DNA of 64,000 nucleotides from Anaerolineae bacterium. GTDB lineage: Bacteria > Chloroflexota > Anaerolineae > VGOG01. Shown piece after piece: positions 14,299-63,800 of this stretch. The stretch is taken from contig JBAWAP010000434.1 in assembly GCA_049589355.1 (NCBI GenBank), forward strand, positions 177 to 64,176. Direction: 5' to 3'. The notes under the pieces were generated by a model. That model saw only the letters and a list, made by a program, of their open reading frames with translations. It was not told where the DNA came from and did not search any database. Position numbers and translations under genes: made by a program. Each line of letters starts with the position of its first letter. Position 1 is the stretch's first letter.

Positions 14299-15467
14299 CT
14301 CGACTTCATCTCCTCGATGCTATCTCCCCCGAGCTTCTCCATCAATGCGTCGGCGATCACCCAGGCGACCATGGCCTCGCCGACTATCGAAGCAGCAGGC
14401 ACGGCACAGACATCAGAGCGCTGATACTGAGTAGTGGCCGGCTCTCCTGTGGCCAGGTCCACCGAACGCAGAGGTGTCACGGTAGTAGGGATAGGTTTCA
14501 TGGCTGCCCGCACCACGATGGGCTGCCCGTTGCTCATCCCACCCTCAATGCCGCCAGCCCTATTGGAGTGACGAGTAACGAGTAACGAGTAACGAGTTTC
14601 CTCATCTCTCATTTCTCGTTCCTCGTTACTCGTTACGAAGATTTCATCGTGCACCTCTGTTCCCAACCTACGAGCATTCTCGAAAGCCGGCCCGATCTCC
14701 AACCCTTTGATGGCCGGAATGCTCATCACCGCGCCAGCCAGGCGAGCGTCCAGGCGACGGTCCCATTGGACGTGGCTACCCAGGCCGACAGGCACGCCGG
14801 TGGCAACGACAACGAAAACGCCGCCCAGGGAGTCCCCCCCTGTCTTGGCCTCGTCAATGCGCTGACGCATGGCCTCTGCGGCGACGGGATCGGGACAGCG
14901 AACGTCGGAGGCTTCTGCCCTCTCCCAGAGTTCGCCCCTCTCGCTCCCCCCCAAAAGTTGGGGGGGGCTGGGGGAGGGCGGGATCTCCGCCACCACGCCA
15001 CCGATTTCGGTCACGTAGCTGCCAACGGAGATGCTGAACTCGGAAAGCAACTGCTTAGCCACTGCCCCCACTGCCACCCGAGCTGCTGTCTCACGAGCAC
15101 TGGCTCGCTCAGCTACCAACCGCAGATCGCCTAGGTTGTACTTGATGGCCCCCGCCAGATCGGCATGGCCTGGCCGAGGTACCGTCCAAGGCGGGATATC
15201 CCTGTCCTTCCAGTTGGCCCAGTCCTTGTTCTCGATGCGTAAGGCGATAGGCGTACCGATGGTCAGGCCCTTGGATACTCCGCTAAGAATCTCGACCTGG
15301 TCACGCTCGATCTTCATGCGCTGACCGCGTCCATAGCCCCCCTGGCGGCGGCGTAGATCAACGTTGATCTCTTCTTCGCTTAGATGAAGCCCAGCCGGCA
15401 TTCCCTCGATGATGGCTGTGAGACAAGGCCCATGAGACTCGCCAGCGGTCAAAAAACGCAACGCCAT
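14289..15467 (-). CDS. aroC: Chorismate synthase, carrying two in-frame palindromic insertions
   Basis: [27 protein letters not shown]...[24 protein letters not shown]. Insertions are encoded by a 7-mer hairpin at 14570..14638 and a C7/G8 palindrome at 14946..14967. Confidence 0.9.
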
Positions 15468-15578
15468 CGCTTACCTCCTCAGAGTCTTAGGCATAATTCA
15501 TGAGACAAAGAGACCTGTTTGAGCAAGCAGCCTACGTGATGCGTAAAACGTGATGCGTGAAAACGGCTTGCTCACGCA

Positions 15579-16517
15579 TCACGGATCACGTTTCACGCAG
15601 AATCTTTGCAGCAGCAAGCCTAAAAGTGTCAAGGACGTTTCCTGCGATTCTGAACTATGCCAAGTTTTGCTAGCAGCCTCGTACATCGTCTCGACAGGTG
15701 CTTTCTCCCCCGTCCACAGTTCGAAAGCCGCAGCTCCCTGGTGGACCAGCATCCCCAAACCGCCGATGCCTTTCGCTCCTGCTTCTCTAGCCTGCCGCAG
15801 AAGCTTGGTCTGGCGAGGATTGTATACCAGGTCGAAGACGGTCAGATGGCCGGGGAAGGCCAGGTCTTCCGGCCAGGGGGATTTGTCTACTTCAGGCCAC
15901 ATGCCGACAGGCGTGGCATTGACCAATAAGTGGGATTCAGTTGCCCGCTCTTTCAATATTTGTAGTGTGAGAGGGAGGGAGAGGAGGGAAAGAGAGGGAA
16001 ACAAGGGGGAGAAATCTTGAACCAGGGCGTGAGCACGGGATGGAGTGCGATTCAGAGCAGTCACCTGCGCCCCGCCCTGGGCCAGGGCGTAGACTACGGC
16101 CCTGGCAGCGCCACCAGCCCCCAGAACCACAGCCCGCTTGCCCTGAGGATCGAAGCCAACCTCGCTTAAGGCAGTCAGGAAGCCTTGCCAGTCGCTGTTG
16201 TACCCGATGCCCTGCCCCTCACGCACCACGATGGTATTGACTGCCCCGATAGCTTGCGCCTCCGGTGTGACTTCGTCGAGATAGGATATCACCGCCTCTT
16301 TGTGAGGTACAGTAACATTGGCCCCCACGAAGTTCAGAGCCCGCAGGCCAGCAACCGCTTCCCCCAACTGCTCAGGATGCACAGGCAAGGGCAGGTAGCA
16401 CCAGTTCAGGTTGAGCGCGGCAAAGGCGCTATTGTGCATGGCTGGCGAGAGGCTGTGCTCGATTGGATAACCTATCAATCCTACGAGCTTCGTCTGGCCA
16501 TTGATGTCCAGTGGCAT
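15579..16517 (-). CDS. aroE: Shikimate dehydrogenase
   Basis: MPLDINGQTKLVGLIGYPIEHSLSPAMHNSAF...NATPVGMWP, AGGAG RBS. The C-terminal residues and stop codon are supplied by the 7-mer hairpin repeat at 15534..15600. Confidence 0.9.
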   Translation of the reverse strand: MPLDINGQTKLVGLIGYPIEHSLSPAMHNSAFAALNLNWCYLPLPVHPEQLGEAVAGLRALNFVGANVTVPHKEAVISYLDEVTPEAQAIGAVNTIVVREGQGIGYNSDWQGFLTALSEVGFDPQGKRAVVLGAGGAARAVVYALAQGGAQVTALNRTPSRAHALVQDFSPLFPSLSLLSLPLTLQILKERATESHLLVNATPVGMWPEVDKSPWPEDLAFPGHLTVFDLVYNPRQTKLLRQAREAGAKGIGGLGMLVHQGAAAFELWTGEKAPVETMYEAASKTWHSSESQETSLTLLGLLLQRFCVKRDP

Positions 16518-16530
16518 GGCTCGCTCTCCT

Positions 16531-17871
16531 TCAGCTCATTAAGGCTCTCAAGATCTCCTCGAAGCCTGGGAATGAATCTGCGATACATTCCGCTCCCTCG
16601 ATTGTTGTTTCCCCTTCGGCTACTAGGCCAGCTATGGCCAGGGACATGGCCAGGCGGTGATCGCCGTGACTGTTGACCTGGGTTCCCACTAGTGTCGTCG
16701 GTCCTTCCACCACGAAGCCGTCATCCCTCTCCTTGATACATGCCCCAAGCTTCCTCAGCTCAGCTACCATGGCCGCGATGCGGTCGGTCTCCTTGACTCT
16801 GAGTTCCGCTGCGTCGCGCACTATCGTCTCCCCCTCCGCCTGGCTGGCAACCACAGCCAAGATGGGGAATTCATCAATCATCCTGGGCACCTGATCACCC
16901 CTCACCTCTATGCCCCTTAGGGCCGAGACCCCGCGCCCTGCCCGCACAACGGCGTCGGCTACTGGCTCGCCGCTGACCTCCTGCTGATTCTCTATCAGGA
17001 TGTCCGCTCCCATCTCCCTCAGCGCGTCCAAGAGGCCCGTGCGGGTGGGGTTAACACCGACGCCTTCGACAACGACTTCCCCCTCCTCTTTTCCCCCCCC
17101 ATGGGGAGGGATGAGGCAAGCGGCAGCGATGAAGTAAGCTGCTGAGGAGATATCCCCTGGCACAACAACGTTCAGAGATGACAACCCTACGCCTCCACGT
17201 AGAGTTATCGTGGAACTTTGAACTTTGAACTTTGAACTTTGAACTTCAATACTTGCGCCCATTGCGGCCAGCATCCGCTCGGTGTGGTCGCGGGCGGGGC
17301 CTGGCTCGTGGATCACCGTTGGGCCATCGGCGTAGAGGCCTGCCAGTAAAATGGCTGACTTCACCTGAGCGCTGGCTACGGGCAGCCTGTACTCGATGCC
17401 GTGCAGATTTCCGCCCAGTATGGTCAAGGGAGGCAGGCGGCCATCGTCGCGACCTAACACAGTTGCCCCCATCCGTCTCAGAGGCTCGACGATGCGGCCC
17501 ATGGGCCGTCGGCGGAGTTGCTCGTTTCCCGTCAGCACGCTGTAGAAGGGCTGGCCAGCCAGAATCCCCGCCAACAAACGCATGGTCGTACCCGAACCAG
17601 CACAGTCCAGGATATCTTTCGGCTCCGTCAAACCATGCAAGCCCTGCCCGTGCACGATCAACTCCGTCTCGGATAGTCTATCTACCTCGACACCTAGCGC
17701 TTGCACACAAGCTAAGGTAGCCAGGCAATCTGCCGCTGGCAGGAAATTCCGGATCCTGGTCGTGCCCTCGGCTATCGCACCCAGCAGCAGAGCGCGATGG
17801 GAAATGGATTTGTCGCCCGGGACTTTGACCCGACCACTCAGACCTCTAGCTTGTTCAACAGTCAGCCTCAT
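16531..17871 (-). CDS. aroA: 3-phosphoshikimate 1-carboxyvinyltransferase (EPSP synthase), with two in-frame repeat-derived insertions
   Basis: MRLTVEQARGLSGRVKVPGDKSISHRALLLGAIAEGTTRI.... Insertions: VQSSKFKVQSS from (GAACTTT)n at 17213..17244, and GGGKEEGEV from a poly-C/poly-G palindrome at about 17089..17125. Confidence 0.9.
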   Translation of the reverse strand: MRLTVEQARGLSGRVKVPGDKSISHRALLLGAIAEGTTRIRNFLPAADCLATLACVQALGVEVDRLSETELIVHGQGLHGLTEPKDILDCAGSGTTMRLLAGILAGQPFYSVLTGNEQLRRRPMGRIVEPLRRMGATVLGRDDGRLPPLTILGGNLHGIEYRLPVASAQVKSAILLAGLYADGPTVIHEPGPARDHTERMLAAMGASIEVQSSKFKVQSSTITLRGGVGLSSLNVVVPGDISSAAYFIAAACLIPPHGGGKEEGEVVVEGVGVNPTRTGLLDALREMGADILIENQQEVSGEPVADAVVRAGRGVSALRGIEVRGDQVPRMIDEFPILAVVASQAEGETIVRDAAELRVKETDRIAAMVAELRKLGACIKERDDGFVVEGPTTLVGTQVNSHGDHRLAMSLAIAGLVAEGETTIEGAECIADSFPGFEEILRALMS

Positions 17872-17884
17872 AGAACTTCAAACC

Positions 17885-18781
17885 CTAAACTTTAAACTTT
17901 AAACCTTGAACTCTGAACTTTGAAGTTTGAAGTTTGACCTTTAAAGTTTGAACGTCGTCCGTCTCTAGCAGGTGGGCGATAGCGTCGAGTTGACGGGCGA
18001 AGCGGGACAACGTCTCTCCCACCGCCTGGCGGTTAGTGAGCAGGATGTCCAGCATCATGGTAACGTCGCTGGCTGCCAGGCGCGAGGTGTCGCGAAAGCC
18101 GCTGGCGGTCAGTCCCCAGACCAGCTCGTCCTCCGCTGCTACCTCCTCAGCGGCAGCCACCAGACCCACCGACAGGAGATAGGGAAGGTGGCTGACAGCG
18201 GCCACCAGGCGGTCGTGGCGCTCGGCGTCCATCAACAAAGGCTGCGCACCTATGGCCTCGACTAGCTCTTGGGCTAGCATTAGCGCTTCCGAACTGGTCC
18301 GCCGCAGGGCTTGCCCTGAGCCCTGTCGAAGGGGAGTAAGCACAAAGGTCGCCCCCTCGTAGAGGTCAGCCTCTGCAGCTTCGATCCCCGACGCCTCCTT
18401 GCCACACATGGGGTGGCCGCCGACGGCTTGAAGGTAGGATGGCAACGCTTTCATGGCTTCGACAATCCTGGCCTTGGTGCTGCCCAAATCCATCAGCAAA
18501 CAGCCAGCGGAAGCAAGGGACCCCACCTGAGGTATAAGCTCCAAGTTGGTCCGCACTGGAGTGGCCAGCACGATCAGGTCGGCTTGCTCCACCCCCTCGG
18601 CCAGGTCACAGGTGCCCACATTGATGAAACCGCGCCTCATGGCTTTCTCGATGGTTTCCTCTCGTCGGGCCACCCCCCATACCTCTCGACAGGAACCTCG
18701 CTTCTTCAAGGCCCCGGCCAGAGACCCACCCATCAGGCCCAGCCCGACGATTGTTACCTGCGCATCTTTCAAACACACCAC
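17885..18781 (-). CDS. tyrA: Prephenate/arogenate dehydrogenase
   Basis: VTIVGLGLMGGSLAGAL...GGHPMCGKE.... GTG start 18781 with GGAGG 5 nt upstream. The ORF-track extension to 18817 and the C-terminal ...KFRVQGLKFKV both come from heptamer repeat DNA. Confidence 0.8.
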   Translation of the reverse strand: MVCLKDAQVTIVGLGLMGGSLAGALKKRGSCREVWGVARREETIEKAMRRGFINVGTCDLAEGVEQADLIVLATPVRTNLELIPQVGSLASAGCLLMDLGSTKARIVEAMKALPSYLQAVGGHPMCGKEASGIEAAEADLYEGATFVLTPLRQGSGQALRRTSSEALMLAQELVEAIGAQPLLMDAERHDRLVAAVSHLPYLLSVGLVAAAEEVAAEDELVWGLTASGFRDTSRLAASDVTMMLDILLTNRQAVGETLSRFARQLDAIAHLLETDDVQTLKVKLQTSKFRVQGLKFKV

Positions 18782-18841
18782 GTTAACCTCCAACTTCCAA
18801 CCTCCAAAGAAGGCCACAGTTTAAGGTTTGAAGTTTGAAGT

Positions 18842-19855
18842 TTAAAGTTTGCGGTCCACTGCTTCTGCCACTCTCCGCAGCTCTCTCACTAACTGGGCAA
18901 ACCTCTCTGGTTTTAGCGATTGGGCTCCGTCGGAGAGGGCTTGCTGGGGATGGGGATGCACTTCGATAAGCAATCCATCGGCGCCGGCGGCCACAGCAGC
19001 TCTGGCTACGGGCCCCACCAACTCCCATCTGCCAGTACCGTGGCTGGGATCAACGATGACCGGCAAGTGGGTCAGTCCCTTAAGGACGGGTACGGCGTTG
19101 ATGTCCAGGGTGTTGCGGGTATACTTTTCGAAGGTGCGGATGCCCCGTTCGCAGAGCATGACCCGGTAGTTGTCGTGGGAGAGGATGTGTTCAGCCGCCA
19201 TGAGAAGTTCCTCCAGAGTGGACATCATCCCTCGCTTGAGGAGGACGGGCATCTTCGACTCGCCCACGGCGTTCAGGAGGCTGAAGTTCTGCATGTTTCG
19301 GGCCCCGACCTGGAGGATGTCGGCATAGCGGGCCACCAGGGGCACGTCTTCGGGGGTCATGACCTCCGTGACGACAGCCAGCCCAGTCTCCTCCTTGACC
19401 TCGGCCAGGATCTCTAAGCCCTCCTTCCCCAGGCCCTGGAAGCTATAGGGGGAGGTGCGCGGTTTGAAGGCTCCGCCGCGCAGAATTCGGACACCCGTCT
19501 CCTTGACCGCCCAAGCCGTCTCTAACAGTTGCTCTCGGCTCTCCACGGCACAGGGCCCGGCCATGACTGTCACTTCCCGTGAGCCGATCTGCATCCCGTT
19601 GATGGGGATGACGGTGTCCTCGGGCTTGAAGTCACGGCTGGCCAGCTTGAAGGGCTGGAGGATGGGCACCGTCCTCTCCACTCCCTCCATCAGTTCGAAG
19701 ACGTGAGGGCTGACAGGCCGCTCATCGCCGATGACGCCGATGATGGTCCGCTCCTCGCCACGGGAGAGGTGGGCCCGAAACCCCATTTCCTCTATCTGAC
19801 CCACTACTCCCCGTATCTCCTCCTCTCCGGCCCCCATTTTCATGATGATGATCAT
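18842..19855 (-). CDS. aroF: 3-deoxy-7-phosphoheptulonate (DAHP) synthase, class I-beta, with an N-terminal regulatory (ACT/ferredoxin-like) domain
   Basis: KDO8PS-like core: [47 protein letters not shown] ... [10 protein letters not shown]. About 80 aa of N-terminal extension, as in Thermotoga-type DAHPS. ATG 19855, AGGAGG RBS. Confidence 0.85.
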
Positions 19856-19937
19856 GATGACCTCCTATCCCAATTGGGATCTGGAGCGCAGGCGCAAGCC
19901 TGCGGACCTGCGTCCGCGCTCTAGCGAGTTTTCCCAT

Positions 19938-20306: not shown

Positions 20307-20321
20307 CTTTACCCCCCAGAT

Positions 20322-33271: not shown

Positions 33272-34288
33272 CTACGCTGCCCGCGGCCGCAGCCTTTGGG
33301 CCACCAGCCCAACCGCCGGGCCGAAAGCCAGTATTGCCAAGCCGACTGCCAGCAGGATCAAGGGCTGTCCGGTCTGGCCGTGGCTCAACCGCCATGGCCA
33401 GAAGACGCCGTACTCGATGCCCCACATCGTCCCCAGGCAGAGGAGCCCACCAACGGCCAGCAACGCCGCCCGCCGTGCTGGCGGTCCGGTCACGAAGCCG
33501 TATATCAACCCGCCATAGATCAGACCCAGCGGCCCAACCAGTAGCCCAACGTCCAGACGATTGATGGGAGGGTTTGAGGCCCAGGAGACCACCACCAGGC
33601 TGAGGATCATAGTCGTGCTCAGCCCGGCCAGTCCGCCCAGCAACGGCCCACGCCAGCCGACTGCCCCCAGCGCTGCCCCTAACAGCAACAACAGGGCCAT
33701 CATGATCAGCACGTCAATCACCGGGGACACGAGGTACGGCAGGTCGTCAGCGGCAACCATTAGCGCAAACACGATGACCATGACCGCGGTTCCGACCCAG
33801 GTGTATCCCCAAAGCGGCAGCCGCCGCGCCACGGCGACCACGCCGCCGATCACCAAGATCAGCGCGGCCAGCACCAAGGCGCCGATGCAGACCATCATCC
33901 CTCCCGTAATGATGCCGGGGCTGTAATGGATGCGCGTCGGGCCGCCGATCACCAACCGGCTCAGGGGCGCTCTGAGCAGTAAGGAAATGGCGATGCTCAG
34001 ACCGAGGAGCACCGGCGGCAATGCTGCCAGCAATGCGTCTCGCCTCGTCGCCCCGCCGTGCACCTGCTTTAACTCCCGGCCCACCTCGGCCGGATCACCC
34101 AATGCTTCCATCGCCTTTTCCATGCTTGCCTCCTCCGTAAGCCCATGCAGCATCAGCCAGCGGGCCTTATCTTCAAAGTGACCACTGATCTCAGCCACGA
34201 TCTCCTGCCGCCGGGCCTCTTCGAGCCGGCCCAGCGCGGCCTCCATGGTCATTAGATAGCTATGGCTCAAATCCATCTCCAAACCCAC
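33272..34288 (-). CDS. Membrane protein with a DUF1700-like N-terminal domain and a polytopic C-terminal region
   Basis: N-terminus ...EISGHFEDKARWLMLHGLTEEASMEKAMEALGDPAEVGRELKQVHG, then about 8 hydrophobic segments. Confidence 0.45.
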   Translation of the reverse strand: MGLEMDLSHSYLMTMEAALGRLEEARRQEIVAEISGHFEDKARWLMLHGLTEEASMEKAMEALGDPAEVGRELKQVHGGATRRDALLAALPPVLLGLSIAISLLLRAPLSRLVIGGPTRIHYSPGIITGGMMVCIGALVLAALILVIGGVVAVARRLPLWGYTWVGTAVMVIVFALMVAADDLPYLVSPVIDVLIMMALLLLLGAALGAVGWRGPLLGGLAGLSTTMILSLVVVSWASNPPINRLDVGLLVGPLGLIYGGLIYGFVTGPPARRAALLAVGGLLCLGTMWGIEYGVFWPWRLSHGQTGQPLILLAVGLAILAFGPAVGLVAQRLRPRAA

Positions 34289-34692
34289 CTGGCAATGTTC
34301 AGACCGCTACAAAGTCTTATTGCTTTTTCGACGCTGTATTGACACATGCAGGTACTTACATTGCATGGACTCGGACATAGCTTCTCCGTACGTAGCAGCT
34401 TTTCAAGAGATGGTAAGGCTTGTTTATCTCCAATCTCCCCCAAAGCCCATATTGCCTGGTTTCTCTCTTCAAAGGTATGTCGATCTGAATTTGCATGTGC
34501 AATCAACGCTTCGACACAATCGCCTCCGAATTCCTGACGAGCCTCGCGGCAAGCAGCTCTGACGTCGGAACTGATCCAGTGCATTGTCAGCCATAGGACA
34601 AAAGCTCCGATTACAACGATGGCTATCAAACTGTATAGAATGACCCTTCTCCATTCAACACCACGTCTCTGAGAACCTTCCCTTTTCTGCAT
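34267..34692 (-). CDS. HEAT/PBS-lyase-repeat protein with an N-terminal TM anchor
   Basis: MQKREGSQ... at ATG 34692 with GGAGG RBS. TM segment VILYSLIAIVVIGAFVLWL. HEAT motif NQAIWALGEIGDKQALPSLEKLL. Confidence 0.45.
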   Translation of the reverse strand: MQKREGSQRRGVEWRRVILYSLIAIVVIGAFVLWLTMHWISSDVRAACREARQEFGGDCVEALIAHANSDRHTFEERNQAIWALGEIGDKQALPSLEKLLRTEKLCPSPCNVSTCMCQYSVEKAIRLCSGLNIARWVWRWI

Positions 34693-34757
34693 GATCTGCC
34701 TCCTTGTCGTTTTGAAGTGAGCGCCTTCCCAATCCACCAGTTTCCCAATCTACCAAT

Positions 34758-35543
34758 TTACCAGCCTGGCTGCGGCGGTGGGCCAGCGTCTTCGGGGATG
34801 GGCGGACCATCAGGTAGGTTGTGCAGGTAATCGCAGGAGACGAATTTCACGTCTTCCCAAACGTACCCCTCGGCCTCAAAGGTAAGAATGTCCTTGATCC
34901 AGCGTTTCTGACCATCCTCCAGGGCGTAGATGTGAGGGCTGCCCTCACACTTAAGGAGCACGTGGATGGGGCGGCCTTTCTCGAATTTCTCCAGGAAGCT
35001 GTCATCAACAACGTGCACCTGATCCCAGCGGTAACCGAAAAACTCAAAAGCATCCAGGCTGCTAATCCACCGTAGCTTGTTGTCCTCCAGGACGAATATA
35101 TCCGAGCCGCTGCCCTTGAGCACCAGACCGTCGCGGATGACCAGGGCAGCGGTGTCGGGCATGATGCGGGCCAGGCTGGTGCCGTAGCGGGTGATGGGAA
35201 CGTTAATCACCACCACCAGCACCACCAGGACGAGCAGCAGACGGCCCAGAGTACGGCCCAGGTTGATGCTGGGCAGAGGCGGCGGGGGTACCCAGTCCTC
35301 CTCGCCGGCCCAAGGGTCCCCGGTCGGCTTGGCAGCGGCAATGGGCTCCGGCGCCGAGGGCTCCACCGTTGGCTGCGGGGCCGGGGAAGGCGGCGTCACT
35401 TGATCCAGACCGGGCTCCTCTTGAGCCTGACGGACGGCCTGCCGCTCCAGTAAAGCCTCCAACAGCAGGTCCAGAATTTGCTCTGTGGCGGAAGGCTCCG
35501 TGTTCGCTGATTCGCTGATTCGCTGATTCACTGATTCCCTCAT
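34758..35543 (-). CDS. Membrane-anchored protein with an acidic, Pro-rich N-terminal region; unknown function
   Basis: Internal TM segment LGRLLLVLVVLVVVINV. The N-terminal (ESANxRIS) tail is encoded by an 8-mer tandem repeat at 35497..35528. Confidence 0.4.
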   Translation of the reverse strand: MRESVNQRISESANTEPSATEQILDLLLEALLERQAVRQAQEEPGLDQVTPPSPAPQPTVEPSAPEPIAAAKPTGDPWAGEEDWVPPPPLPSINLGRTLGRLLLVLVVLVVVINVPITRYGTSLARIMPDTAALVIRDGLVLKGSGSDIFVLEDNKLRWISSLDAFEFFGYRWDQVHVVDDSFLEKFEKGRPIHVLLKCEGSPHIYALEDGQKRWIKDILTFEAEGYVWEDVKFVSCDYLHNLPDGPPIPEDAGPPPQPGW

Positions 35544-41292: not shown

Positions 41293-41371
41293 AACCTGAA
41301 TTCTCCTTTGGAAGTTGGAAGGTAGAGGTTGGAAGTTAGAAGTTGGAAGCTAGAAGATCAACCTCCAATCT

Positions 41372-48149: not shown

Positions 48150-48227
48150 AGTTTGTTGTTCCTCCCTGTCAAAGTTAGAAAATTTCGAGTTTCGGGTTTG
48201 GGGTTTCGAGTTAAAGTCAAGCGAATC

Positions 48228-50187: not shown

Positions 50188-50214
50188 TTAGCACTCTTGA
50201 TATTAGAGTGCTAA
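50188..50214 (-). promoter_or_regulatory. CIRCE operator (TTAGCACTC-N9-GAGTGCTAA), HrcA binding site
   Basis: Perfect consensus inverted repeat 26 nt upstream of the hrcA ATG. Confidence 0.9.
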
Positions 50215-50944: not shown

Positions 50945-52276
50945 CTATGCTCCCCAACCAGCAACGATTTGACGGGCCATCTCTCTCGCACGGGCGAAGA
51001 TCTCACCCTCATCGAGGGTCAGGAGTACGCGATCCCGCATCACGACCCGCCCATCAATGATGACCGTGCGCACATCGCTGGAATGGGCGGCATAAACCAG
51101 GTGCGAGGTAACGTTGTACACTGGCACCATGTGTGGCACGTCCAGGTCCAGAATGATCATGTCCCCACGCTTCCCAACCTCTAGCGAGCCCAGCCGATCA
51201 TCCAACCCCAGCACGCGAGCCGCTTCCAGGGTGGCCATGCTCAGCGCCTGACGGGCAGGCATCGCCGTGGGATCGCCAGCTATCATCTTGTGCACCTTGG
51301 CAGCGGTTCCCACTTCGCCAAACATGTCCAGGTCGTTGTTGCTGGCCGCGCCATCGGTCCCCAGCCCAACCTTGACGCCCGCCTCCAGCAGCTTGGGCAC
51401 TGGAGTGAAGCCAGAGGCTAGCTTCAACTGGCTCTCCGGGCAGTGGACCACGCCAGCGTTGTATTGAGCCAGCAGTTCGATGTCCTCGTCTGTCAAATGC
51501 ACGCCGTGAATGGCTACGGTGGTGGGCCCCAGGAGACCCAGGTCTGCCAGGCGACCCACAGGCGTGTGTCCGTACTTCTCGATGCTCTCCTGCACCTCGC
51601 TCTGGGTCTCCGATACGTGGAGCAGGTAGGGCGCACCGTACTGATCGGCCAGCGCCTTGGCCTGCTGCATCAGATCCGATGAGGCGGCATACGGACTATG
51701 CGGTTGGACCGAGGGAATCACCAGGGAATCATCATGCCATTCGCTCAGCAGGTGTTCTGTATAGTTGAGCTGATCCTCCGGGGTCTTACAATTGGCCGTT
51801 GGAAAGTCCACCAGCGCCTCCCCGATAACCACGCGAATACCGGCCTCCTTGCACGCTTCGGCGATGTCATCCTCGAAGTAATACATATCGCAAAACAGGA
51901 CAGTGCCAGAGCGAATCATCTCCGCCGCTGCAAGCTGAGTGCCCAGGCGAACGAAATCCGGGCTGAGCAATTTAGTCTCTGCGGGCCAGATGTACTTGTA
52001 CAACCAGGTCTCCAACGGAAGATCGTCGGCAATCCCCCGAAAGAGGGTCATCGGGGCATGGGTGTGGGCGTTGATAAGGCCAGGCATGACTAGCTTGTCG
52101 CTGGCATCTATCCGCTCCCGCCCGCGATATACCCGCTCTACCTCCTCGCGGGGCCCCAGGCCAACGATAGCTCCCCCGTCCACAGCCACCACCCCTGGGT
52201 CATAGATGTTCCAATCCCGATCAGCGGTCAACACGATACCGCCGACTACCACCAGATCAGCTTCGTGCGAAACCAT
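50945..52276 (-). CDS. Amidohydrolase, MtaD-like (5-methylthioadenosine/S-adenosylhomocysteine deaminase family); tandem duplicate, copy B
   Basis: ...PGLINAHTHAPMTLFRGIADDLPLETWL...HVSET.... Long near-identical protein stretches shared with 52342..53670. Confidence 0.7.
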   Translation of the reverse strand: MVSHEADLVVVGGIVLTADRDWNIYDPGVVAVDGGAIVGLGPREEVERVYRGRERIDASDKLVMPGLINAHTHAPMTLFRGIADDLPLETWLYKYIWPAETKLLSPDFVRLGTQLAAAEMIRSGTVLFCDMYYFEDDIAEACKEAGIRVVIGEALVDFPTANCKTPEDQLNYTEHLLSEWHDDSLVIPSVQPHSPYAASSDLMQQAKALADQYGAPYLLHVSETQSEVQESIEKYGHTPVGRLADLGLLGPTTVAIHGVHLTDEDIELLAQYNAGVVHCPESQLKLASGFTPVPKLLEAGVKVGLGTDGAASNNDLDMFGEVGTAAKVHKMIAGDPTAMPARQALSMATLEAARVLGLDDRLGSLEVGKRGDMIILDLDVPHMVPVYNVTSHLVYAAHSSDVRTVIIDGRVVMRDRVLLTLDEGEIFARAREMARQIVAGWGA

Positions 52277-52341
52277 TCATGAACCTCCCTATAGCGCTCG
52301 ATTTTCGATTGCCGATTGGCGATTTTCGATTCAGAAAGACG

Positions 52342-53670
52342 CTACCTCAACCCAGTAGCGATCTCACGGGCCATCTCCCTCGCCTGGACAAATATCTCTT
52401 CCTCATCCAGGGTCAAGAGTTCTCGATCCCGCATCACGACCCGCCCATCAATAATAACAGTGCGCACATCGCTGGAATGGGCGGCATAAACCAGGTGTGA
52501 AGTGACGTTGTACACTGGCACCATGTGCGGCACGTCCAGGTCCAGAATGATCATGTCCCCACGCTTCCCAACCCCCAGCGAGCCCAGCCGATCATCCAAG
52601 CCCAGCACGCGAGCCGCTTCCAGAGTAGCCATGCTCAGCGCCTGACGGGCAGGCATCGTCGTGGGGTCGCCAGCTATCATCTTGTGCACCTTGGCCGCCG
52701 TTCCCACTTCGCCAAACATGTCCAGGTCGTTGTTGCTGGCCGCGCCATCGGTTCCCAGCCCAACCTTCACCCCCGCCTCCAGCAGCTTCGGCACGGGAGT
52801 GAAGCCAGAGGCTAGCTTCAATTGACTCTCCGGGCAGTGAATCACGCCAGCATCGTGCTGAGCCAGTAGTTCGATGTCCTCGCCTGTCAAATGCACGCCG
52901 TGAATGGCTACGGTGGTGGGCCCCAGGAGACCCAGGTCTGCCAGGCGACCAATGGGTGTGCGCCCGTGCTTCTCGATGCTCTCCTGCACCTCGCTCTGGG
53001 TCTCCGACACGTGGAGCAGGTAGGGCACACCGTACCGATCAGCTAACTCTTTCCCTGCCCGCATTAGGCTCGACGAGGCAGCGTATGGACTGTGCGGCTG
53101 GATCGAAGGAATCACCAGCGAATCGTCACCCCATTTCTGTAGCAAGTACTCATTGCGTTCCAGCCCCTCCTCGGGGGTCTTGTAATCGGGATTGGGAAAG
53201 TCCACCAACCCCTCCCCGATAACCACGCGAAGGCCGGCCTCCTTGCACGCTTCGGCGATGTCGTCTTCGAAGAAGTACATGTCACAGAACAGGACGGTGC
53301 CAGAGCGGATCATCTCCGCCGCTGCAAGCTGAGTGCCCAGGCGGACGAAGTCCGGGCCGACCCATTTAGCCTCCGCAGGCCAGATGTAGTCATACAGCCA
53401 GGTCTCCAACGGAAGATCGTCGGCGATCCCCCGAAAAAGGGTCATCGGGGCATGGGTGTGGGCGTTGATCAGGCCAGGCATGACCAGCCTGCTGCTGGCG
53501 TCAATCCGCTCCCGCCCGCGATACGTCCGCTCTATCTCCTCCCGTGGCCCCAGGCCAACGATGGCTCCCCTGTCCACAGCCACCGCTCCTGGGTCATACA
53601 TGTTCCAATCCTGATCAGCGGTCAGCACCACGCCACCAGCTACCACCAGATCAACTTCTTGCAAAGCCAC
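52342..53670 (-). CDS. Amidohydrolase, MtaD-like; tandem duplicate, copy A
   Basis: Same motifs as copy B. Separated from it by the heptamer array (CGATTTT CGATTGC CGATTGG CGATTTT CGATTCA). Confidence 0.7.
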   Translation of the reverse strand: MALQEVDLVVAGGVVLTADQDWNMYDPGAVAVDRGAIVGLGPREEIERTYRGRERIDASSRLVMPGLINAHTHAPMTLFRGIADDLPLETWLYDYIWPAEAKWVGPDFVRLGTQLAAAEMIRSGTVLFCDMYFFEDDIAEACKEAGLRVVIGEGLVDFPNPDYKTPEEGLERNEYLLQKWGDDSLVIPSIQPHSPYAASSSLMRAGKELADRYGVPYLLHVSETQSEVQESIEKHGRTPIGRLADLGLLGPTTVAIHGVHLTGEDIELLAQHDAGVIHCPESQLKLASGFTPVPKLLEAGVKVGLGTDGAASNNDLDMFGEVGTAAKVHKMIAGDPTTMPARQALSMATLEAARVLGLDDRLGSLGVGKRGDMIILDLDVPHMVPVYNVTSHLVYAAHSSDVRTVIIDGRVVMRDRELLTLDEEEIFVQAREMAREIATGLR

Positions 53671-57736: not shown

Positions 57737-57799
57737 GAGTGCCTTGGGCTGGACAAAAGCAGCCAGGTGGGATATAATTTCTTCAGAGGAGAACAAACG

Positions 57800-58321
57800 T
57801 TGAAGAAAGCACTCCCAGCCTTAGTCTGCCTTGTATTATTGACCCCACATATCTGGACTGACAAGCCGGCCTCCGCCTCAGCGCCACCTGACCCTCGCTT
57901 CGGGGCGGTGGAGGCTTATGAAGCCCCCGATCAAGCAACTTTGGCCGGCGTGGGCTGGGAACGGATACTCTTCTGGTGGTATCAACTGCAACCCAACGGG
58001 CCAGAGGATTGGAACGACCAGTACTTCCCCGATGAAATCCTGGATAGGGAACGTGCCCAGGGCCGAGAGGTGGTGGGCCTGCTCAATAACACTCCCCACG
58101 CCCACCGCTACGCCGACGACCACACTCACTCCTATGCCCACCGCTACTATAACACAGCTACCCACCCCTACGCCCACAGCAACAAACCTGCCGACGCCGA
58201 CAGCAACGAACACTCCTTTCCCTACTTCCACCCTCACCCCCTCCCCTACAGCCACCGCTACCAGTTCCCTTGCCTAATCCCCCTCGGCGGCGTCCTCATC
58301 TGGTGGCGGAGGCGGCGCTGA
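57800..58321 (+). CDS. Secreted hypothetical protein with a His/Tyr/Pro-rich linker and C-terminal hydrophobic anchor with basic tail (...LIPLGGVLIWWRRRR)
   Basis: TTG start 57800 with GAGGAG RBS. Signal peptide LKKALPALVCLVLL. Strong C bias at third codon positions supports this frame. The PT-rich ORF 57918..58277 is a shadow frame. Confidence 0.45.
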   Translation: MKKALPALVCLVLLTPHIWTDKPASASAPPDPRFGAVEAYEAPDQATLAGVGWERILFWWYQLQPNGPEDWNDQYFPDEILDRERAQGREVVGLLNNTPHAHRYADDHTHSYAHRYYNTATHPYAHSNKPADADSNEHSFPYFHPHPLPYSHRYQFPCLIPLGGVLIWWRRRR

Positions 58322-58366
58322 CCAGTTACCACTGACCATGGACCACCTGACCAAGGACATGAAGGC

Positions 58367-58958: not shown

Positions 58959-59127
58959 TCTGGGAAAGTAGCGGGAAATGGAAAAAGAAATGGTGAGAAA
59001 CCCGGAAGGCCCGTTCCTTGGATTCCCAAGTGAACCGCTGCAAGCAGCCGTCCAGCCTTACCCCGGATTTACTTCTCACCATCGCTATCTAATAACATAA
59101 TTTCCTTAAATTGTCAAGGAGGCAGAA

Positions 59128-60468
59128 ATGCTCATCACCAATAGCACGCTCATCACCTTTGGCGAGAAGAACCAGGTCATATCCGATGGGGCTATCCTCA
59201 TCACCGGCGAGCACATAGCCGATTTGGGCTCGACGGCGGAGCTCACGGCAAAATACCCCGCTGAGGAGATCCTCGACGCCCAGGGCAAACTGGCGATGCC
59301 CGGCCTGATCTGTGCCCACACTCACTTCTACGGCGCTTTCGCCCGAGGGATGGCCATCCCTGGCGAAGCCCCCCAGAACTTTCCGGAGATTCTGGAGAAG
59401 CTGTGGTGGCAACTCGACAAAGCCCTCCTTTGGCAAGACATTCGCTACAGTGCCCTGGTCTGCCTGATAGATGCCATCCGCCACGGCACCACCACCCTCA
59501 TAGATCACCACGCCTCTCCCAACGCTATTGATGGTTCACTGGACATCATCGCTAAAGCGGTGGAGGAGGCCGGAGTGCGCGCCTGCCTGTGCTACGAGGT
59601 GAGTGACCGGGACGGGAAGGATAAGGCAATGGCGGGGATCAGGGAGAATGAGCGATTTATCAGGGGAGCAAGGGAGCAAGGGAGCAAGGGAGCAGGAGGG
59701 GCAATTGCGGGAACATTTGGCTTGCACGCTTCGATGACGCTTTCCGATGAGACGTTGGAGCAGGCGGTGGAGGTGGCCAATGGGTTGGGCGTAGGTTTCC
59801 ATATCCACGTGGCGGAGGATATGGCCGACGTGCGGGATAGCCTGAAGAAATCGGGCCTGCGGGTCGTCGAGAGGTTGAGCAAGTTCGGTGTATTGGGCCC
59901 CCAGACCATCGCCGCCCATTGCGTGCATGTGGACGCCTACGAGAAGGAGATCCTGCAAGAGACGGGCACGCGGGTAGTCCACAATCCCCGCTCCAACATG
60001 AACAACGCCGTGGGCGTGGCCGACGTGCCAGGCATGCTGAAACGCGGGATTGACGTGGGCCTGGGCAACGACGGTTTCTCCAATAACATGTTCACTGAGA
60101 TGCATACCGCTTACCTCTTGCACAAGCTGAACAAGGGTGATCCGCGAGTCATGGGCGCCGACCAGATGATGCAAATGGCGTTTCAGAACAACGCCCAGAT
60201 AGCTAACCTGTTCTTCGCTGACCCTCTGGGGCAGCTCTCCGTAGGCGCACTGGCCGATGTGGTTCTGGTGGATTACAAGCCGACCACCCCCTTGACCGAA
60301 GGCAACTTCCCCTGGCACATCATCTTCGGCGTGGACGGCACGGGAGTGGACACGACCATCGTCGGCGGTCAAGTGCTGATGCAGAACAAGGAGCTTTTGA
60401 GCCTGGACGAGGAAGAAGTCTGTGTCAAATCGCAGGAGCTGGCAGGTAGGCTCTGGAAGAGATTATGA
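59128..60468 (+). CDS. ssnA: SsnA-like putative aminohydrolase (chlorohydrolase/deaminase family)
   Basis: ...PGLICAHTHFYGAFARGM..., 446 aa, AGGAGG RBS. Carries an in-frame (GGGAGCAA)n 8-mer repeat insertion at 59675..59708. Confidence 0.65.
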   Translation: MLITNSTLITFGEKNQVISDGAILITGEHIADLGSTAELTAKYPAEEILDAQGKLAMPGLICAHTHFYGAFARGMAIPGEAPQNFPEILEKLWWQLDKALLWQDIRYSALVCLIDAIRHGTTTLIDHHASPNAIDGSLDIIAKAVEEAGVRACLCYEVSDRDGKDKAMAGIRENERFIRGAREQGSKGAGGAIAGTFGLHASMTLSDETLEQAVEVANGLGVGFHIHVAEDMADVRDSLKKSGLRVVERLSKFGVLGPQTIAAHCVHVDAYEKEILQETGTRVVHNPRSNMNNAVGVADVPGMLKRGIDVGLGNDGFSNNMFTEMHTAYLLHKLNKGDPRVMGADQMMQMAFQNNAQIANLFFADPLGQLSVGALADVVLVDYKPTTPLTEGNFPWHIIFGVDGTGVDTTIVGGQVLMQNKELLSLDEEEVCVKSQELAGRLWKRL

Positions 60469-60469
60469 T

Positions 60470-60715
60470 ATGTCCTCGTGGATTGATGGTACCCTGTATC
60501 CCGATACAGAGCCTCCCGAAACACTGGACACTCTGGCCGACCGGGTGGACTTTTTGGCCCGGCTGTGCGCGGCGTGGGACTTTGGGGTGTTGCCCTACCC
60601 AGAGACCGTGGCCGAGGTTCGCCGCCCGGAATGGCGGGAGGCGGTAGACGCTTGTTGCCTCCTGACCTCTCCGGCTTACCACCTGTTGCGAACCTGGCAC
60701 AACCTGGAACCTTAG
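60470..60715 (+). CDS. Small hypothetical protein between ssnA and ygfK
   Basis: MSSWIDGTLYPDTEPPETLDTLADRVDFLARLCAAWDFGVLPYPETVAEVRRPEW.... Start 2 nt after the ssnA stop. Confidence 0.35.
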   Translation: MSSWIDGTLYPDTEPPETLDTLADRVDFLARLCAAWDFGVLPYPETVAEVRRPEWREAVDACCLLTSPAYHLLRTWHNLEP

Positions 60716-60816
60716 CCCTACCTGGGAGCGCGCCTGGCCTACATCTGGGAGGACCCCAATCTGAAGTATATCTAGCCCGCCGCTCGGCCCACGTTTACTG
60801 AAAGGAATGAAGAAAC

Positions 60817-63800
60817 GTGTCTGATACCATGAAGGTCCAATCCTTTGAAGTCCTTCTCAACTGGATTCTGAAAGAGCTTGAGCGGAATCAGTCCATCTTT
60901 GGGATCCATCGCTCTCTTTTCTATATCCCCAAAAAGGACAGCCCCTACGCCATCCCGGACCTCTTTGGGCATTACCTGGCCACTCCCATCGGACCGGGGG
61001 CCGGCCCCCATACCCAATTGACACAGAACATCATCTGTGCCTGGCTCTCCGGTGGCCGATTCATCGAACTGAAGACCGTGCAAATCATGGACGAACTGGA
61101 GATCACCAGGCCCTGCATTGACATGGAGGATGAAGGCTATAACGTCGAATGGTCTCAGGAGCTGAAGCTGGATCAGTCTGCCAGCGAGTATGTCAAATCC
61201 TGGGCCTTGATCCACATCCTCCGCCGGGTCCTTGGCTTCGAGGACCTTTCCTTTGGCACGATTTTCAACATGAGCGTCGGCTACAACCTGGAGGGGATTC
61301 AGAGCCCACCCATGACCCGTTTCATGGACAAACTGGAGGACGCCTCCGAGGAAATCGCCGCAATCCAGGCGCTTCTGAGAGAGAAGTTCTCCCAGTTCAG
61401 CGATATCGAGATTCCGGCTCGTGTCACCAACAACGTCACTCTCTCCACCATGCACGGTTGCCCCCCGGACGAAATCGAACGGATCGGCAGGTATCTGCTG
61501 GAAGAAAGGGGGCTGCACACCGCGGTTAAGCTGAATCCCACTCTGCTGGGCAAAGAGGAGGTGATGCGCATCCTCCACGACCACCTCGGCTTCAGGGAGA
61601 TCCATATCCCCGACCGCGTGTTCGAGCACGATCTGCAATACGACCGGGCGGTGGAATTGATCAAGACATTGAGCGGGGTTGCCGCAGAGCGGGGCCTGAC
61701 CTTTGGGATCAAATTGAGCAACACCCTAGCCATGGCCAACCACAAGGGCATCCTCCCTGGCGACGAAATGTACATGTCGGGACGCGCCCTCTACCCCGTT
61801 ACCGTTAACCTCTTCCACAGGCTCTCCCAGGAATTCGGCGGCGACCTGAACGTCTCTTTCTCTGCCGGAGCCGATGCCTTCAATCTGACGGGGATCCTGG
61901 CTGCCGGTGCCCGGCCTGTCACCGTAGTCTCCGACCTGCTGAAGCCGGGTGGCTATTCCAGGATGCTTCAATACCTGGAGAATCTGGAAAGGGATATGGA
62001 GAGGCTGGGGGCACAGAGCCTGGAGGAACTGGCCCAAGACAAGCTGACTAATCTGGAACGAGAGGCCGCCCGGGCCCTGGACGACCCCCGCTACAAGAAG
62101 GGCTACCACCCCTACGGCCTGCCCAAGGTCGAATCGAAACTGGGCCTTTTCGATTGCATCGCTGCTCCCTGTGTGGAGAAGTGCGCCATCCACCAAGACG
62201 TGCCCGAATACGCCTGGCTGACCTCCCGCCAGAAATACGACCAGGCACTGGAGGTCATCCTCTCCCGCAACCCCCTGCCTGGGGTCACCGGCTACGTCTG
62301 CAATCACCTGTGCCAGACCCGATGCACCCGTAACAACTACGACCAGCCCGTCGCTATCCGCGCCCTCAAACGGTTTGCCGCCGAACACGGGAACGTGCCC
62401 CAAATTGAAAATCGCAAATCGCAAATCGCAAATCGCAGAGTGGCCGTGATTGGCAGCGGCCCCTCGGGGCTGGCTGTGGCCTATTCCCTGGCGCTGAACG
62501 GTGTCGAGGCGACCATCTATGAAGCCAAGGACAGGGCTGGAGGGATGCTGGCCATCGCCCCCACTTTCAGGCTGCCCCAGGCTGTCGTTCAGGAGGACAT
62601 TGACCGAATCACCAATTTGGGAGTGAAGATCGAACTTTCCCATCCCATCACATCCCCCCCGGAGGAGCTTCTGGCAGACGGGTTTGATGCCGTCTACATT
62701 GCCTCGGGCGCTCAGAAGGATGCCCGTCTGGGCATCGAAGGCGAAGAAGGCGAAGGCGTCCACCATGCGCTTGGTTTACTCGACCAGGTGCGGTGGGGTG
62801 AAAGAGTCGAATTGGGCAGCAGGGTCTTGGTCATCGGCGGAGGGAACTCGGCTATGGATGCCGCCAGGACGGCCAAGCGGCTTACGAGCGGCTTGGTGAC
62901 CATCGTCTATCGTCGGACACGGAGCGAGATGCCGGCCGACGAGGAGGAGATCGAAGACACTCTGGTGGAGGGCGTGGTTTTGGAGGAACTGACTTCCCCC
63001 ACCAGGATCATCCTGCAAGAGAGCCGGGTCGTCGCCCTGGAGTGTGTACGGAACGAGCTGGGAGAGCCTGGTCGAGACGGGAGGAGAAGGCCGATTCCCA
63101 TCGAAGGTAGCGAGTTTCAGATCGAGGCGGATTCCATCATCGTGGCCATCGGCCAGGTGCCGGACGTTTCCTTTCTCGACCGAAGCGTGATCACTCTTCG
63201 CGAGGATGCGACCATCGCCGTTGCCCCCGAGACCGGGCTTGCGGGAGAAGAACGGGTCTATGCGGGGGGGGATGCGGTGCGAGGACCCGCCACCATCGTC
63301 GAGGCGTGCGCCGACGGCCGGCGGGCCGCCGAGGCGATTTGCCAGCAGTTGGGTGTGCCGTTTGAACGGCCGTCCGTCAACCTTCCCATGCTCTCTGAGG
63401 AAGAAATCGCGCAAGTCAAGCGTGTCCGAGCTAGGAAGGCGGCACAGCACGAGGCAGCAATGCTCCCGCCCGGTGAGCGTGGCGGCTTCGACTTGGTCGA
63501 AGCGACCCTGACGGAGGAGGCGGCCCTGACCGAGGCGACCCGCTGTCTGCAGTGCTCGACCCTGTGCGACAAATGTGTGGAGGTGTGCCCCAACCGAGCC
63601 AATTACACCTTCTTCGTCGCCCCTGTCAGCCTGACGCTGCCCAAGGTCTCATGCCAGCAGAGAGGCTTGGCCGTAGCTGGGAAGGAGCTCTTCCGGCTCG
63701 AGCAATCTCGGCAGATCCTCCACGTGGACGACTTCTGCAATGAATGCGGCAACTGCGAGACCTTCTGCGTCCACGAGGGCAAACCCTATCTGGACAAGCC

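Follow-up and report, generated by a model that had tools for sequence, protein, structure and literature searches.

We investigated short tandem repeats in a 64,000-nt stretch of DNA, hereafter the window, from an Anaerolineae bacterium of the Chloroflexota (contig JBAWAP010000434.1). Arrays of heptanucleotide, sometimes octanucleotide, units lie at its gene junctions and within the reading frames of several core enzymes. We interpret them, with a probability of about 0.6, as microsatellites resembling the STRR (short, tandemly repeated and repetitive) sequences of cyanobacteria, which would be generated by period-biased slippage or duplication together with template switching, and which selection would retain at junctions and in permissive loops. 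A first-pass annotation, made from the letters of this DNA alone, had proposed an active repeat process tolerated within open reading frames (ORFs). This overall interpretation is supported, the enrichment of the arrays, their position at gene termini and the comparison of orthologues all being favourable to it.

Period bias and position of the arrays

Arrays were called with Tandem Repeats Finder (TRF) and the raw sequence was inspected at the loci. The eleven arrays named in the first-pass annotation are all present, with a period of 7 or 8 in TRF and within a few bases of the positions given for them; for the ssnA array, the true start lies about 10 nt further upstream than had been proposed (59664-59694). 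Two arrays come in addition to that list, at 58318-58358 (CTGACCA-like) and at 34726-34763 (period 8/16, weak). The gene names were confirmed with NCBIfam for aroC, aroE, aroA, tyrA, aroF, rsmE, prmA, dnaK, grpE, hrcA, two mtaD-like genes, ssnA and recJ, while the ygfK-like gene starts at 60829 and continues past the window end. The AroC, AroA, AroE, PrmA and SsnA proteins of the window are exact matches to proteins MGA9351898-950. An Rfam search gave no match at the gathering score, and a tRNA search found none.

Exact runs of at least three copies occur in the window at period 7 (three runs) and period 8 (two runs), and none was found at periods 4-6 or 9-16. For exact 7-mer runs of at least two copies, an order-2 Markov model predicts 3.1, and 11 were counted. 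Altogether the 64 kb contain 10 period-7 array clusters with copy numbers of 3-9. The units are diverse and A/T-rich against a genome of 57% G+C.

For the comparative counts, arrays of at least 3 copies with at least 75% matches were retained in a clade set, formed by the window and its close relatives (222 kb), and in a comparison set of 70 other loci (1,174 kb). The nearest sampled relatives, L001-L006 and L020, are uncultured Anaerolineae/Chloroflexota metagenome-assembled genomes (MAGs) with AroC identities of 81-87% (tblastn); L081, a Joint Genome Institute (JGI) contig, is closer, with 85-94% DNA identity across the aro operon and its flanks. In the clade set, period 7 accounts for 44 arrays (19.8 per 100 kb), periods 6 and 8 for 11 each (5.0 per 100 kb each) and period 9 for 3 (1.4 per 100 kb). 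The 70 other loci contain 24 period-7 arrays, i.e. 2.0 per 100 kb, 9 of which come from two Nitrospirota loci. The scan, which the first-pass annotation had suggested for the genome and which was made here over 222 kb, gives an enrichment of about 10-fold in the clade for period 7, and no such excess for periods 6 and 9. The period-7 excess is real, confined to period 7 and confined to certain lineages. It is also seen inside ORFs, although selection there should prefer multiples of three, and this speaks for a mutational bias and not for selection on the protein.

The arrays are also enriched at gene termini, as had been proposed. Of 13 clusters, 8 touch a gene boundary (spanning it or lying at most 30 nt from it), compared to 1.9 expected at random placement (P ~0.0005). 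Five clusters are pairs of inverted arrays that form long imperfect hairpins of -18 to -52 kcal/mol, at 14566-14636 (aroC), 15534-15599 (aroE-aroC), 17873-17953 (tyrA-aroA), 18785-18851 (aroF-tyrA) and 41308-41405 (prmA-rsmE); the other clusters are single-arm.

Beyond the clade set, loci rich in period 7 were seen in the Nitrospirota / Nitrospira japonica MAGs L041, L045, L051 and L053, the last with 6 strong period-7 arrays in 21 kb, and in the other Anaerolineae L010, L012 and L025, L010 having a CTGGCTA array of 17.6 copies. Most other Anaerolineae loci have no period-7 arrays. Since the rich loci are scattered in this way, the trait is patchy both across and within phyla.

Hairpins at gene junctions

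Four junctions carry hairpins built from inverted heptamer arrays:

15486-15661, minus strand: aroE-aroC foldback of about 180 nt, with a non-repetitive outer stem and an inner stem (15534-15599) of TGCGTGA / AACGTGA heptamers and their complement
17873-17953, minus strand: tyrA-aroA hairpin of AAACTTY / RAAGTTT heptamers, comprising the last 22 tyrA codons, the stop and 13 nt before the aroA start
18785-18851, minus strand: aroF-tyrA hairpin, with a 5' arm of (AAACTTY)n and a 3' arm of (GGAGGTT/GGAAGTT)n
41308-41405, minus strand: prmA-rsmE hairpin of 98 nt, made of TTGGARG heptamers and their complement

In all four, the stop codon of the upstream gene (aroF, tyrA, aroE or prmA) lies within the stem, and the 3' arm contains or ends at the ribosome-binding region of the downstream gene. 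Units at 3' ends often supply a new stop and a short C-terminus, of 22 residues in tyrA, about 10 in prmA and 24 in aroE.

The aroE stop TGA (15579-15581) lies in the 5' arm of the foldback. The heptamers had been thought to provide the aroE C-terminus and stop; they do so for the last ~6 codons and the stop, and the rest of the 24-residue tail comes from the non-repetitive outer arm. The whole insert of about 180 nt folds at -73.7 kcal/mol (z = -5.3). The element is missing from L081 and L005, where the junction is compact (3-18 nt), and L004 has a 66-nt outer hairpin alone, with the tip sequence TCTGCGTG. The outer stem is common to L004 and the window, and the window adds the inner heptamer arms, whose TGCGTGA units agree with TCTGCGTG at the tip of the shorter hairpin in L004. 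No second site of this outer stem was found in the window or in 1.47 Mb of sampled DNA, where it occurs at the orthologous site only.

At the tyrA-aroA junction, the tyrA stop TAG (17885-17887) lies inside the hairpin stem. The array at 17873-17953 supplies the tyrA C-terminus, as had been noticed, and lies upstream of the aroA start, not of the tyrA start. Among relatives the tyrA C-terminus is not conserved past about residue 290-300. At the other end of the gene, the proposal that repeats provide the tyrA ribosome-binding site holds, its Shine-Dalgarno sequence deriving from 18785-18807, and the aroF stop TAA (18842-18844) is indeed within the 5' arm (AAACTTY)n. In the 3' arm, GGAGG from the GGAGGTT units forms a Shine-Dalgarno sequence whose distance to an in-frame GTG downstream (18781) is 5 nt. 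The longest tyrA ORF (17885-18817) begins at a GTG inside the hairpin. As the homology to TyrA begins near the GTG at 18781, preceded by GGAGG at 5 nt, with matches starting at residue 13-20 (NCBIfam, tblastn), the real start is probably at 18781 or slightly downstream rather than at 18817. The long form of TyrA is not present in the protein collection.

The prmA-rsmE hairpin supplies the last ~10 codons of prmA and its stop TAG (41372-41374), in agreement with the earlier reading of this C-terminus, and ends beside the AAGGAG site of rsmE. Its sense RNA folds at -52 kcal/mol and its antisense at -44 kcal/mol. Unit variants are mirrored between its arms, e.g. TTAGAGA opposite TTCTAAC.

With stop codons and ribosome-binding sites lying in or at the stems, it is probable on this anatomy that the junction hairpins act as intercistronic RNA stem-loops which stabilise transcripts and/or couple translation. 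The complete absence of the aroE-aroC hairpin from L081 and L005 counts against an indispensable role. For two-arm hairpins, a subset of the table with curated strands, the more stable fold was that of the sense RNA in 9 cases and that of the antisense in 2; for all hairpin-like clusters with curated strands the figures are 9 against 4, and automatic strand assignment gave 10 against 7. This asymmetry is not significant, and a bias towards stable sense RNA, as G:U pairs maintained at the RNA level would give, is suggestive only. Intrinsic terminators were considered and rejected: the stems are of 25-45 bp and A/T-rich, and they are followed in the sense strand by Shine-Dalgarno and start sequences, not by the T runs that a terminator would have.

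Four further arrays lie at or near gene ends:

34726-34763, minus strand: weak array of period 8/16 at the junction of the ORFs 34267-34737 and 34758-35543
48183-48212, minus strand: single-arm array of TTTCGRG x4.3 in the grpE-dnaK spacer, 34 nt upstream of the dnaK start
52298-52331, minus strand: single-arm array of TCGATTK x4.9 in the 65-nt spacer of two tandem mtaD-like amidohydrolase genes
58318-58358, plus strand: degenerate CTGACCA-like heptamer array that begins at the stop codon ending a truncated gene for a secreted protein

The array in the dnaK leader is not an operator of the controlling inverted repeat of chaperone expression (CIRCE) type, the only CIRCE being at 50188-50214. 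This CIRCE is perfect (TTAGCACTC-N9-GAGTGCTAA); it heads the hrcA-grpE-dnaK cluster, just upstream of hrcA. The two mtaD-like genes (TRZ/ATZ family; 50945-52276 and 52342-53670) encode proteins of 443 and 442 aa and stand head to tail. At the syntenic position of L082 there is one mtaD-like copy, so that the window apparently has a recent tandem duplication. The truncated gene at 57800-58321 corresponds to a secreted protein of 577-592 aa in L082 (8222-9973), L083 (7845-9578) and L085 (3703-5481). The window protein keeps residues 1-100 and about the last 45; residues 101-482 are gone, and the gene is therefore an internally deleted remnant.

Arrays within coding sequences

Five arrays lie inside ORFs:

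14566-14636, minus strand: aroC inverted pair, codons 278-301, sense (GTAACGA)n ... (ACTCGTT)n (TRF 14566-14597 and 14615-14636)
17213-17246, minus strand: perfect aroA array, sense (AAAGTTC) x4.9, codons 209-220, encoding VQSSKFKVQSS
35503-35537, minus strand: array in a hypothetical protein, sense 8-mer AATCAGCG x4.4, codons 3-14, encoding SVNQRISESANT
59664-59694, plus strand: ssnA array, perfect 8-mer GGGAGCAA x3.9, codons 179-189, encoding REQGSKGAGG
62401-62437, plus strand: ygfK array, CAAATCG x5.3, codons 525-537, encoding IENRKSQIANR in the linker before GxGxxG

These arrays had been described as in-frame, lineage-specific insertions. Outside the clade, AroC, AroA and SsnA orthologues indeed lack the repeat-encoded segments, and so do the solved structures; close relatives have different units and lengths at the matching coding sites, and no examined genome has an ORF array out of frame. 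As judged from the alignments, the coding arrays occupy lineage-specific variable loops of AroC, AroA, SsnA and YgfK.

The aroC hairpin folds at about -35 kcal/mol. Between the conserved motifs HDEI and SNRAGG, L008 and more distant homologues have 33 nt, close relatives 45-87 nt and the window 72 nt, and the loop has 13 residues more in the window than in the solved Aquifex enzyme (1Q1L). An exact insert of 69 nt, or 23 codons, had been claimed here; the element is of about 71 nt, with a net gain over the array-free loop of 39 nt (13 codons). Its 3' array, (ACTCGTT)n, merges into native GTT ACT CGT, i.e. the conserved V-x-R before SNRAGG (V-T-R in the window). L004 and L005 have one ATT ACT CGT only, and in L020-type relatives, where the native codons are GTC AAA CGT, the units (AAACGTC)n run into these relatives' own codons. 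The GTAACGA unit contains TAA, which is out of frame in copies 1-2; copy 3 is GGAACGA, the T>G change in this third unit of the 5' arm removing an in-frame TAA. The GTAACGA/ACTCGTT hairpin is found in the window and L001 only. The same loop has (AAATCTC)4(AAACGTC)3 in L020, (AAAGCTC)4 in L002, (AAATCCC)3 in L081 and blocks of AAATCAC/AAATCCC/AAATCTC in L006 and L007.

AroA is 7 aa longer at its array than the solved 5-enolpyruvylshikimate-3-phosphate (EPSP) synthase 3RMT. The (AAGTTCA)n repeat is continuous with the native GAA GTT CAA (E-V-Q) of L003 and L004. Some relatives have (CCAATAT)n beside (TCAAAGT)n and have lost the native EDGTITLWG segment. The reverse complements of ORF units (GAGATTT, GAACTTT) yield TGA in tandem, so that one orientation only can be read through.

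In SsnA, the alignment of 37 relatives places the hotspot right after ENERFI, where the array-free proteins of 439 aa have 11 residues and the window has 18 (+7 aa). In other relatives the site holds DKGLGTR repeats and, after them, their inverted complement; SANQRxxE repeats; or an expanded form of the window 8-mer. The unit GGAGCAAG resembles the native L082 sequence GTGAGCAAGCTAGCAAGCT (also given as GTGAGCAAGCT). In an AlphaFold model of SsnA, with a mean predicted local distance difference test (pLDDT) score of 67.5 and a predicted template modelling (pTM) score of 0.77, the segment lies between a helix and a strand, and the pLDDT falls below 50 at residues 186-190. The surface-loop location proposed for the added peptides is thus direct for SsnA, in a model of moderate confidence, and for the others it rests mainly on the alignments. 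The SANQRxxE peptide repeat seen in the SsnA loop of one relative (P0113) is also that of the hypothetical protein at 35503-35537.

The YgfK array fills the linker between IRALKRFAAEHG and the dinucleotide-binding motif VAVIGSGPSG. This linker is highly variable, with 13-15 residues in 89 homologues and 16 in the window. The repeat is therefore located before GxGxxG as had been noticed, and it is closer to a replacement within a naturally variable linker than to a true insertion. L083 and the window both have five units and an equal total length, with the CAAATCG/AAAATCG variants in a different order. Elsewhere in ygfK, L083 carries at 14688-14728 a six-unit TTGGARG array that encodes LEVGSWKLEVGDW and replaces ~35 native residues; the unit is shared with the prmA 3'-end hairpin of the window and a local seed is not visible. 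The YgfK linker of L085 (~9850-9910) contains a perfect in-frame palindrome, GAAACCAGGTTTTTCCCCAAAAACCTGGTTTC, and that of L082 a PFDNAQGK-type insert. By comparison of these sequences, the YgfK linker is a general hotspot for hairpin DNA.

Repeats of other types were also observed. In aroC, 14930-14980 (TRF 14959-14979) holds an in-frame insert of a non-heptamer type that is recurrent in enzyme loops of the clade. Such inserts are found in L001, L003 and L006 and in the SsnA homologues P0018, P0031, P0044, P0062 and P0066, with the peptides SPSPPQ..GG, PFDLAQGRLWGG, SPPRGGDKGG, ACPE(P)SRRA, PSTALRHSSGQGSGHR / PFGRAQGRL and PSPPPxHPPxPSPKLGEGKGGAGG, and some are nested in heptamer arrays, the AroC of L003 carrying TGCCCTGAGCGGCGTCGAAGGG. 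They look like separate families of dispersed hairpin elements. In aroE, a low-complexity repeat of GAGAGGGAGG type (15969-16007, period 9-13), not of the heptamer type, encodes FPSLSLLSLPL and is kept in L081. The window start cuts an open frame that is longer than 2,230 codons (1-6693, minus strand) and has a 288-nt tandem repeat of 2.4 copies at 1091-1772; from its sequence, the product is probably a giant repeat-containing surface protein. Tandem repeats with a period of 48 nt (2-2.8 copies, 74-81% matches) lie at 11113-11396 in a 475-aa ORF (10806-12233, minus strand), and a similar 48-nt-period array with 74% matches is found in L081 at 7293-7424.

Origin, rival explanations and related repeats

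A repeat-seeding or slippage process had been proposed for the arrays. Seeding is supported, because the units are continuous with native codons at four loci (aroC, aroA, ssnA and aroE-aroC). Slippage alone fails for the inverted arms and for the arrays that replace sequence. The four matches to local codons, together with a junction hairpin that was seemingly extended at its tip and with an outer stem that is unique in 1.47 Mb, favour an origin in place over transposition, and most arrays seem, on these comparisons, to arise in place.

We propose the following course. A local piece of 7-8 nt would be tandemly duplicated and expanded by slippage or duplication biased to period 7; the local origin is observed at the four loci, and we infer a preference for this period in the enzymology. 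The units would then mutate and the variants spread within the array (concerted evolution), as the comparison of relatives shows. Units and lengths differ even in L081, despite its 85-94% DNA identity, and this turnover is the pattern that unit mutation and spread within the array, constrained by the reading frame, would be expected to give. An adjacent inverted copy of the array, or an extension of a hairpin tip, would follow by intramolecular template switching, as in quasipalindrome mutagenesis, and would yield the long imperfect hairpins. Their anatomy is observed directly, and template switching, taken from established knowledge, would explain the unit variants mirrored between arms (TTAGAGA / TTCTAAC). 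Selection would act as a filter, with survival at junctions, at 3' ends where a unit supplies the stop, and in a few permissive loops or linkers; in the loops, stop-free orientations and lengths divisible by three would persist, which is the picture given by position, frame and orientation. At junctions, the retained hairpins would finally work as mRNA stem-loops between cistrons, stabilising the transcript and/or coupling translation.

Several observations weigh against this course. Clusters of exact sequences have 1-3 members, and a metagenome scan that used degenerate ygfK flanks with a gap of variable length yielded two contigs, both already sampled; that slippage is ongoing is a conjecture. 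A change of one unit in an ORF shifts the frame, which makes stepwise growth in aroC or aroA hard to picture, and the net gains, ranging from +12 to +54 nt, do not come in multiples of 21. The unit TTGGARG recurs at the prmA 3' end, in the ygfK of L083 and at two L004 junctions, the SANQR-type 8-mer is present in two unrelated genes, and some arrays replace native sequence with no local seed visible. Links of similarity between units number 39 against 27.5 ± 5 in a composition-matched null (z ~2.3), a modest excess that is partly inflated by orthologous arrays. This recurrence of units and the seedless replacements fit copying between loci better than purely local growth; there may be some such copying, or the process may prefer certain sequences. 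The 'seed' sequences of relatives could in principle be decayed remnants of arrays, yet the V-x-R of AroC is conserved in all homologues. Total G:U pairs over all arrays are 62 in the sense and 61 in the antisense strand.

The recurrence of equal unit arrays at unrelated loci and in different genomes (TTGGARG, the SANQR-type 8-mer) would be understood if the hairpins were small non-autonomous mobile elements, akin to MITEs (miniature transposable elements with inverted repeats) or Rickettsia palindromic elements (RPEs), that transposed into junctions and in frame into genes with the heptamers as their body. Replacement of native sequence without a local seed at some arrays, the similar flanks of the aroE-aroC foldback (AAAACTT / AAGACTC, matching at 5/7 positions, at one site), the other recurrent small ORF inserts of the clade and the RPE precedent for in-frame palindromic inserts (PMC10969869) point the same way. 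We nevertheless hold this to be unlikely, because there is no near-identical family among 55 distinct canonical units with no shared termini, arrays merge into native codons at four loci, the aroE-aroC outer stem is at one site only in 1.47 Mb, no array has an associated transposase, and lengths and units vary continuously among relatives at a fixed site. Mobile elements were rejected as the main explanation with the foldback termini unique in the window and the 1.47 Mb of loci. Repetitive extragenic palindromes and bacterial interspersed mosaic elements (REP/BIME) were also rejected, as the loci have no conserved palindrome; a gene for the REP-associated tyrosine transposase (RAYT) was not searched for genome-wide.

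A further possibility is that the arrays are selected functional sites, i.e. arrays bound by single-strand nucleic-acid-binding proteins (cold-shock, S1-domain) or DNA-binding proteins, or regulatory RNA, with the period set by the protein footprint. The units, however, differ widely between loci, and between relatives at one locus, leaving no conserved sequence-specific site; the orthologous junctions of L081 and L005 are entirely without arrays; a regulatory role is unlikely for repeats within enzyme ORFs; and the folding asymmetry lacks significance. Set against the strong concentration at gene junctions, the stops and Shine-Dalgarno sites inside stems, the greater stability of sense over antisense RNA in most two-arm hairpins and the binding of CspB to heptamer repeats with one protein per heptamer (discussed in PMC4679880), these points leave such a function improbable as the explanation of the arrays. 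With a unit of 7 or 8 nt, every gain or loss of a copy changes the reading frame, there are perfect arrays at 17213, 59664 and 62409, and arrays lie near start codons at 35503 and 48183, all of which would suit contingency (phase-variation) loci that switch genes through unit gain or loss, by frameshift or altered translation initiation. This is very unlikely, since the hosts are core biosynthetic and housekeeping genes (aroC, aroA, aroE, tyrA, prmA, ssnA, ygfK and the dnaK leader) and not the surface or restriction genes in which such loci typically lie, the ORF arrays keep the frame throughout the genomes examined, the length of the ygfK array has been kept across diverged lineages, and no length variants were seen among the exact-sequence clusters of 1-3 members or in the two contigs from the ygfK-flank scan. 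The window comes from a MAG, and short repeats can confuse assemblers; but arrays of 30-100 nt are shorter than reads and k-mer spans, long ORFs stay in frame, and independent assemblies from different studies have arrays at matching sites, so that an assembly or binning artefact is effectively refuted.

STRR heptamers of heterocystous cyanobacteria were reportedly described by Mazel et al. in 1990. The canonical units are CCCCAGT (STRR1), TTGGTCA (STRR2) and CAACAGT (STRR3), whereas the units found here are GAGTAAC, CGTGATG, AAAGTTC, AAACTTY, GGAAGTT, AAATCGC and others. The array at 58318-58358 (CTGACCA/TGACCAA) resembles STRR2, and is the only one here that does. The likeness to STRRs noticed in the first-pass annotation holds as to 7-bp units and hairpins between co-transcribed genes (PMC2670836). 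In both cases, short tandem 7-nt arrays are dispersed and form inverted hairpin pairs at such positions; in cyanobacteria, 7-bp repeats form hairpins between hupS and hupL, where transcript stabilisation or translational coupling was proposed (PMC2670836). STRRs can also occupy an essential gene at a permissive helix, as those in the RNase P RNA gene (Vioque 1997, as cited in PMC2858038), a precedent for the arrays in essential genes. The present arrays differ in their host phylum (Anaerolineae/Chloroflexota), in having many units instead of a few families, in lying in frame in several enzymes and in the visible origin from local codons. By unit sequence they are filed as the kind of repeat that STRR represents, not as the cyanobacterial families themselves.

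Heptameric simple sequence repeats are over-represented in many bacteria according to Mrazek et al. (2007), as cited in PMC4692102, and an effect of the polymerase footprint on slippage, as cited in the same paper, is the only published idea that we found for the 7-nt step. The GGGAATC repeats of Xanthomonas and GGGGAYT repeats of Nostoc (PMC4692102) likewise show an excess at period 7 and not at neighbouring periods, are mostly intergenic with some inverted pairs, and vary in length and sequence between close relatives at one intergenic site, a slippage origin having been hypothesised; unlike the present arrays, they are G-rich, quadruplex-capable and based on one dominant unit, and coding insertions are not featured. 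TAACTGA direct repeats occur in marine Beggiatoaceae, cyanobacteria and some Bacteroidetes (PMC4679880). They share with our arrays their 2-6 or more copies near start codons overlapping ribosome-binding regions, the few cases in ORFs in a stop-free orientation and a patchy distribution that includes filamentous bacteria, but they have one conserved unit, are almost always direct and were proposed to spread horizontally. RPEs also place in-frame palindromic DNA in unrelated metabolic genes, at fold-compatible sites and with added peptides (PMC10969869); they are conserved families of ~150 bp spread by transposition, whereas here there is no conserved element and the bodies are tandem heptamers with units from flanking codons.

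Through template switching, an established route to new or more perfect inverted repeats, RNA hairpins arise and are preserved (PMC8794818), and quasipalindrome mutations come about in E. coli (PMC7202029). The process can produce a complementary arm or extend a stem in one step, which fits the mirrored variants and the tip-extended aroE-aroC hairpin; it is a general process on unique sequence and is not described on heptamer arrays or at such density. The tandem repeats of Borg elements are under strong selection, when coding, to create disordered regions (PMC9879509). They too evolve rapidly, arise locally and add low-complexity protein segments, but their units are longer and their carriers are archaeal extrachromosomal elements; with a period of 7 or 8, three DNA units are needed here per peptide repeat. 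Within the library searched, the literature search found no work linking Anaerolineae or Chloroflexi with heptamer repeats.

The arrays described here extend the known phenomenon of heptamer repeats to another phylum. They recur at matching sites in independent MAGs, and the clade offers an unusually clear comparative series, in which the same junctions and enzyme loops can be compared across states: no array, a short hairpin, long arrays, or different units. This series shows the origin from local codons, the growth at hairpin tips and the concerted evolution of the units, and it indicates that core enzymes (chorismate synthase, EPSP synthase, SsnA and YgfK) tolerate the repeated rewriting of particular loops. 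To our knowledge, the origin and function of heptamer repeats, known in cyanobacteria since 1990, have never been explained. A bolder reading, which we consider unlikely, is that a dedicated or lineage-specific mutational mechanism, with a step of 7-8 nt, local seeding and template switching at hairpin tips, continuously builds intercistronic hairpins and rewrites loops. If true, it could underlie the heptamer repeats of cyanobacteria, Beggiatoaceae, Nitrospirota and Xanthomonas, and the patchiness of its distribution would then suggest that the step size is set by a replication or repair factor of a transferable or variable kind. If the determinant of this step were identified, the long-standing heptamer puzzle would become testable.

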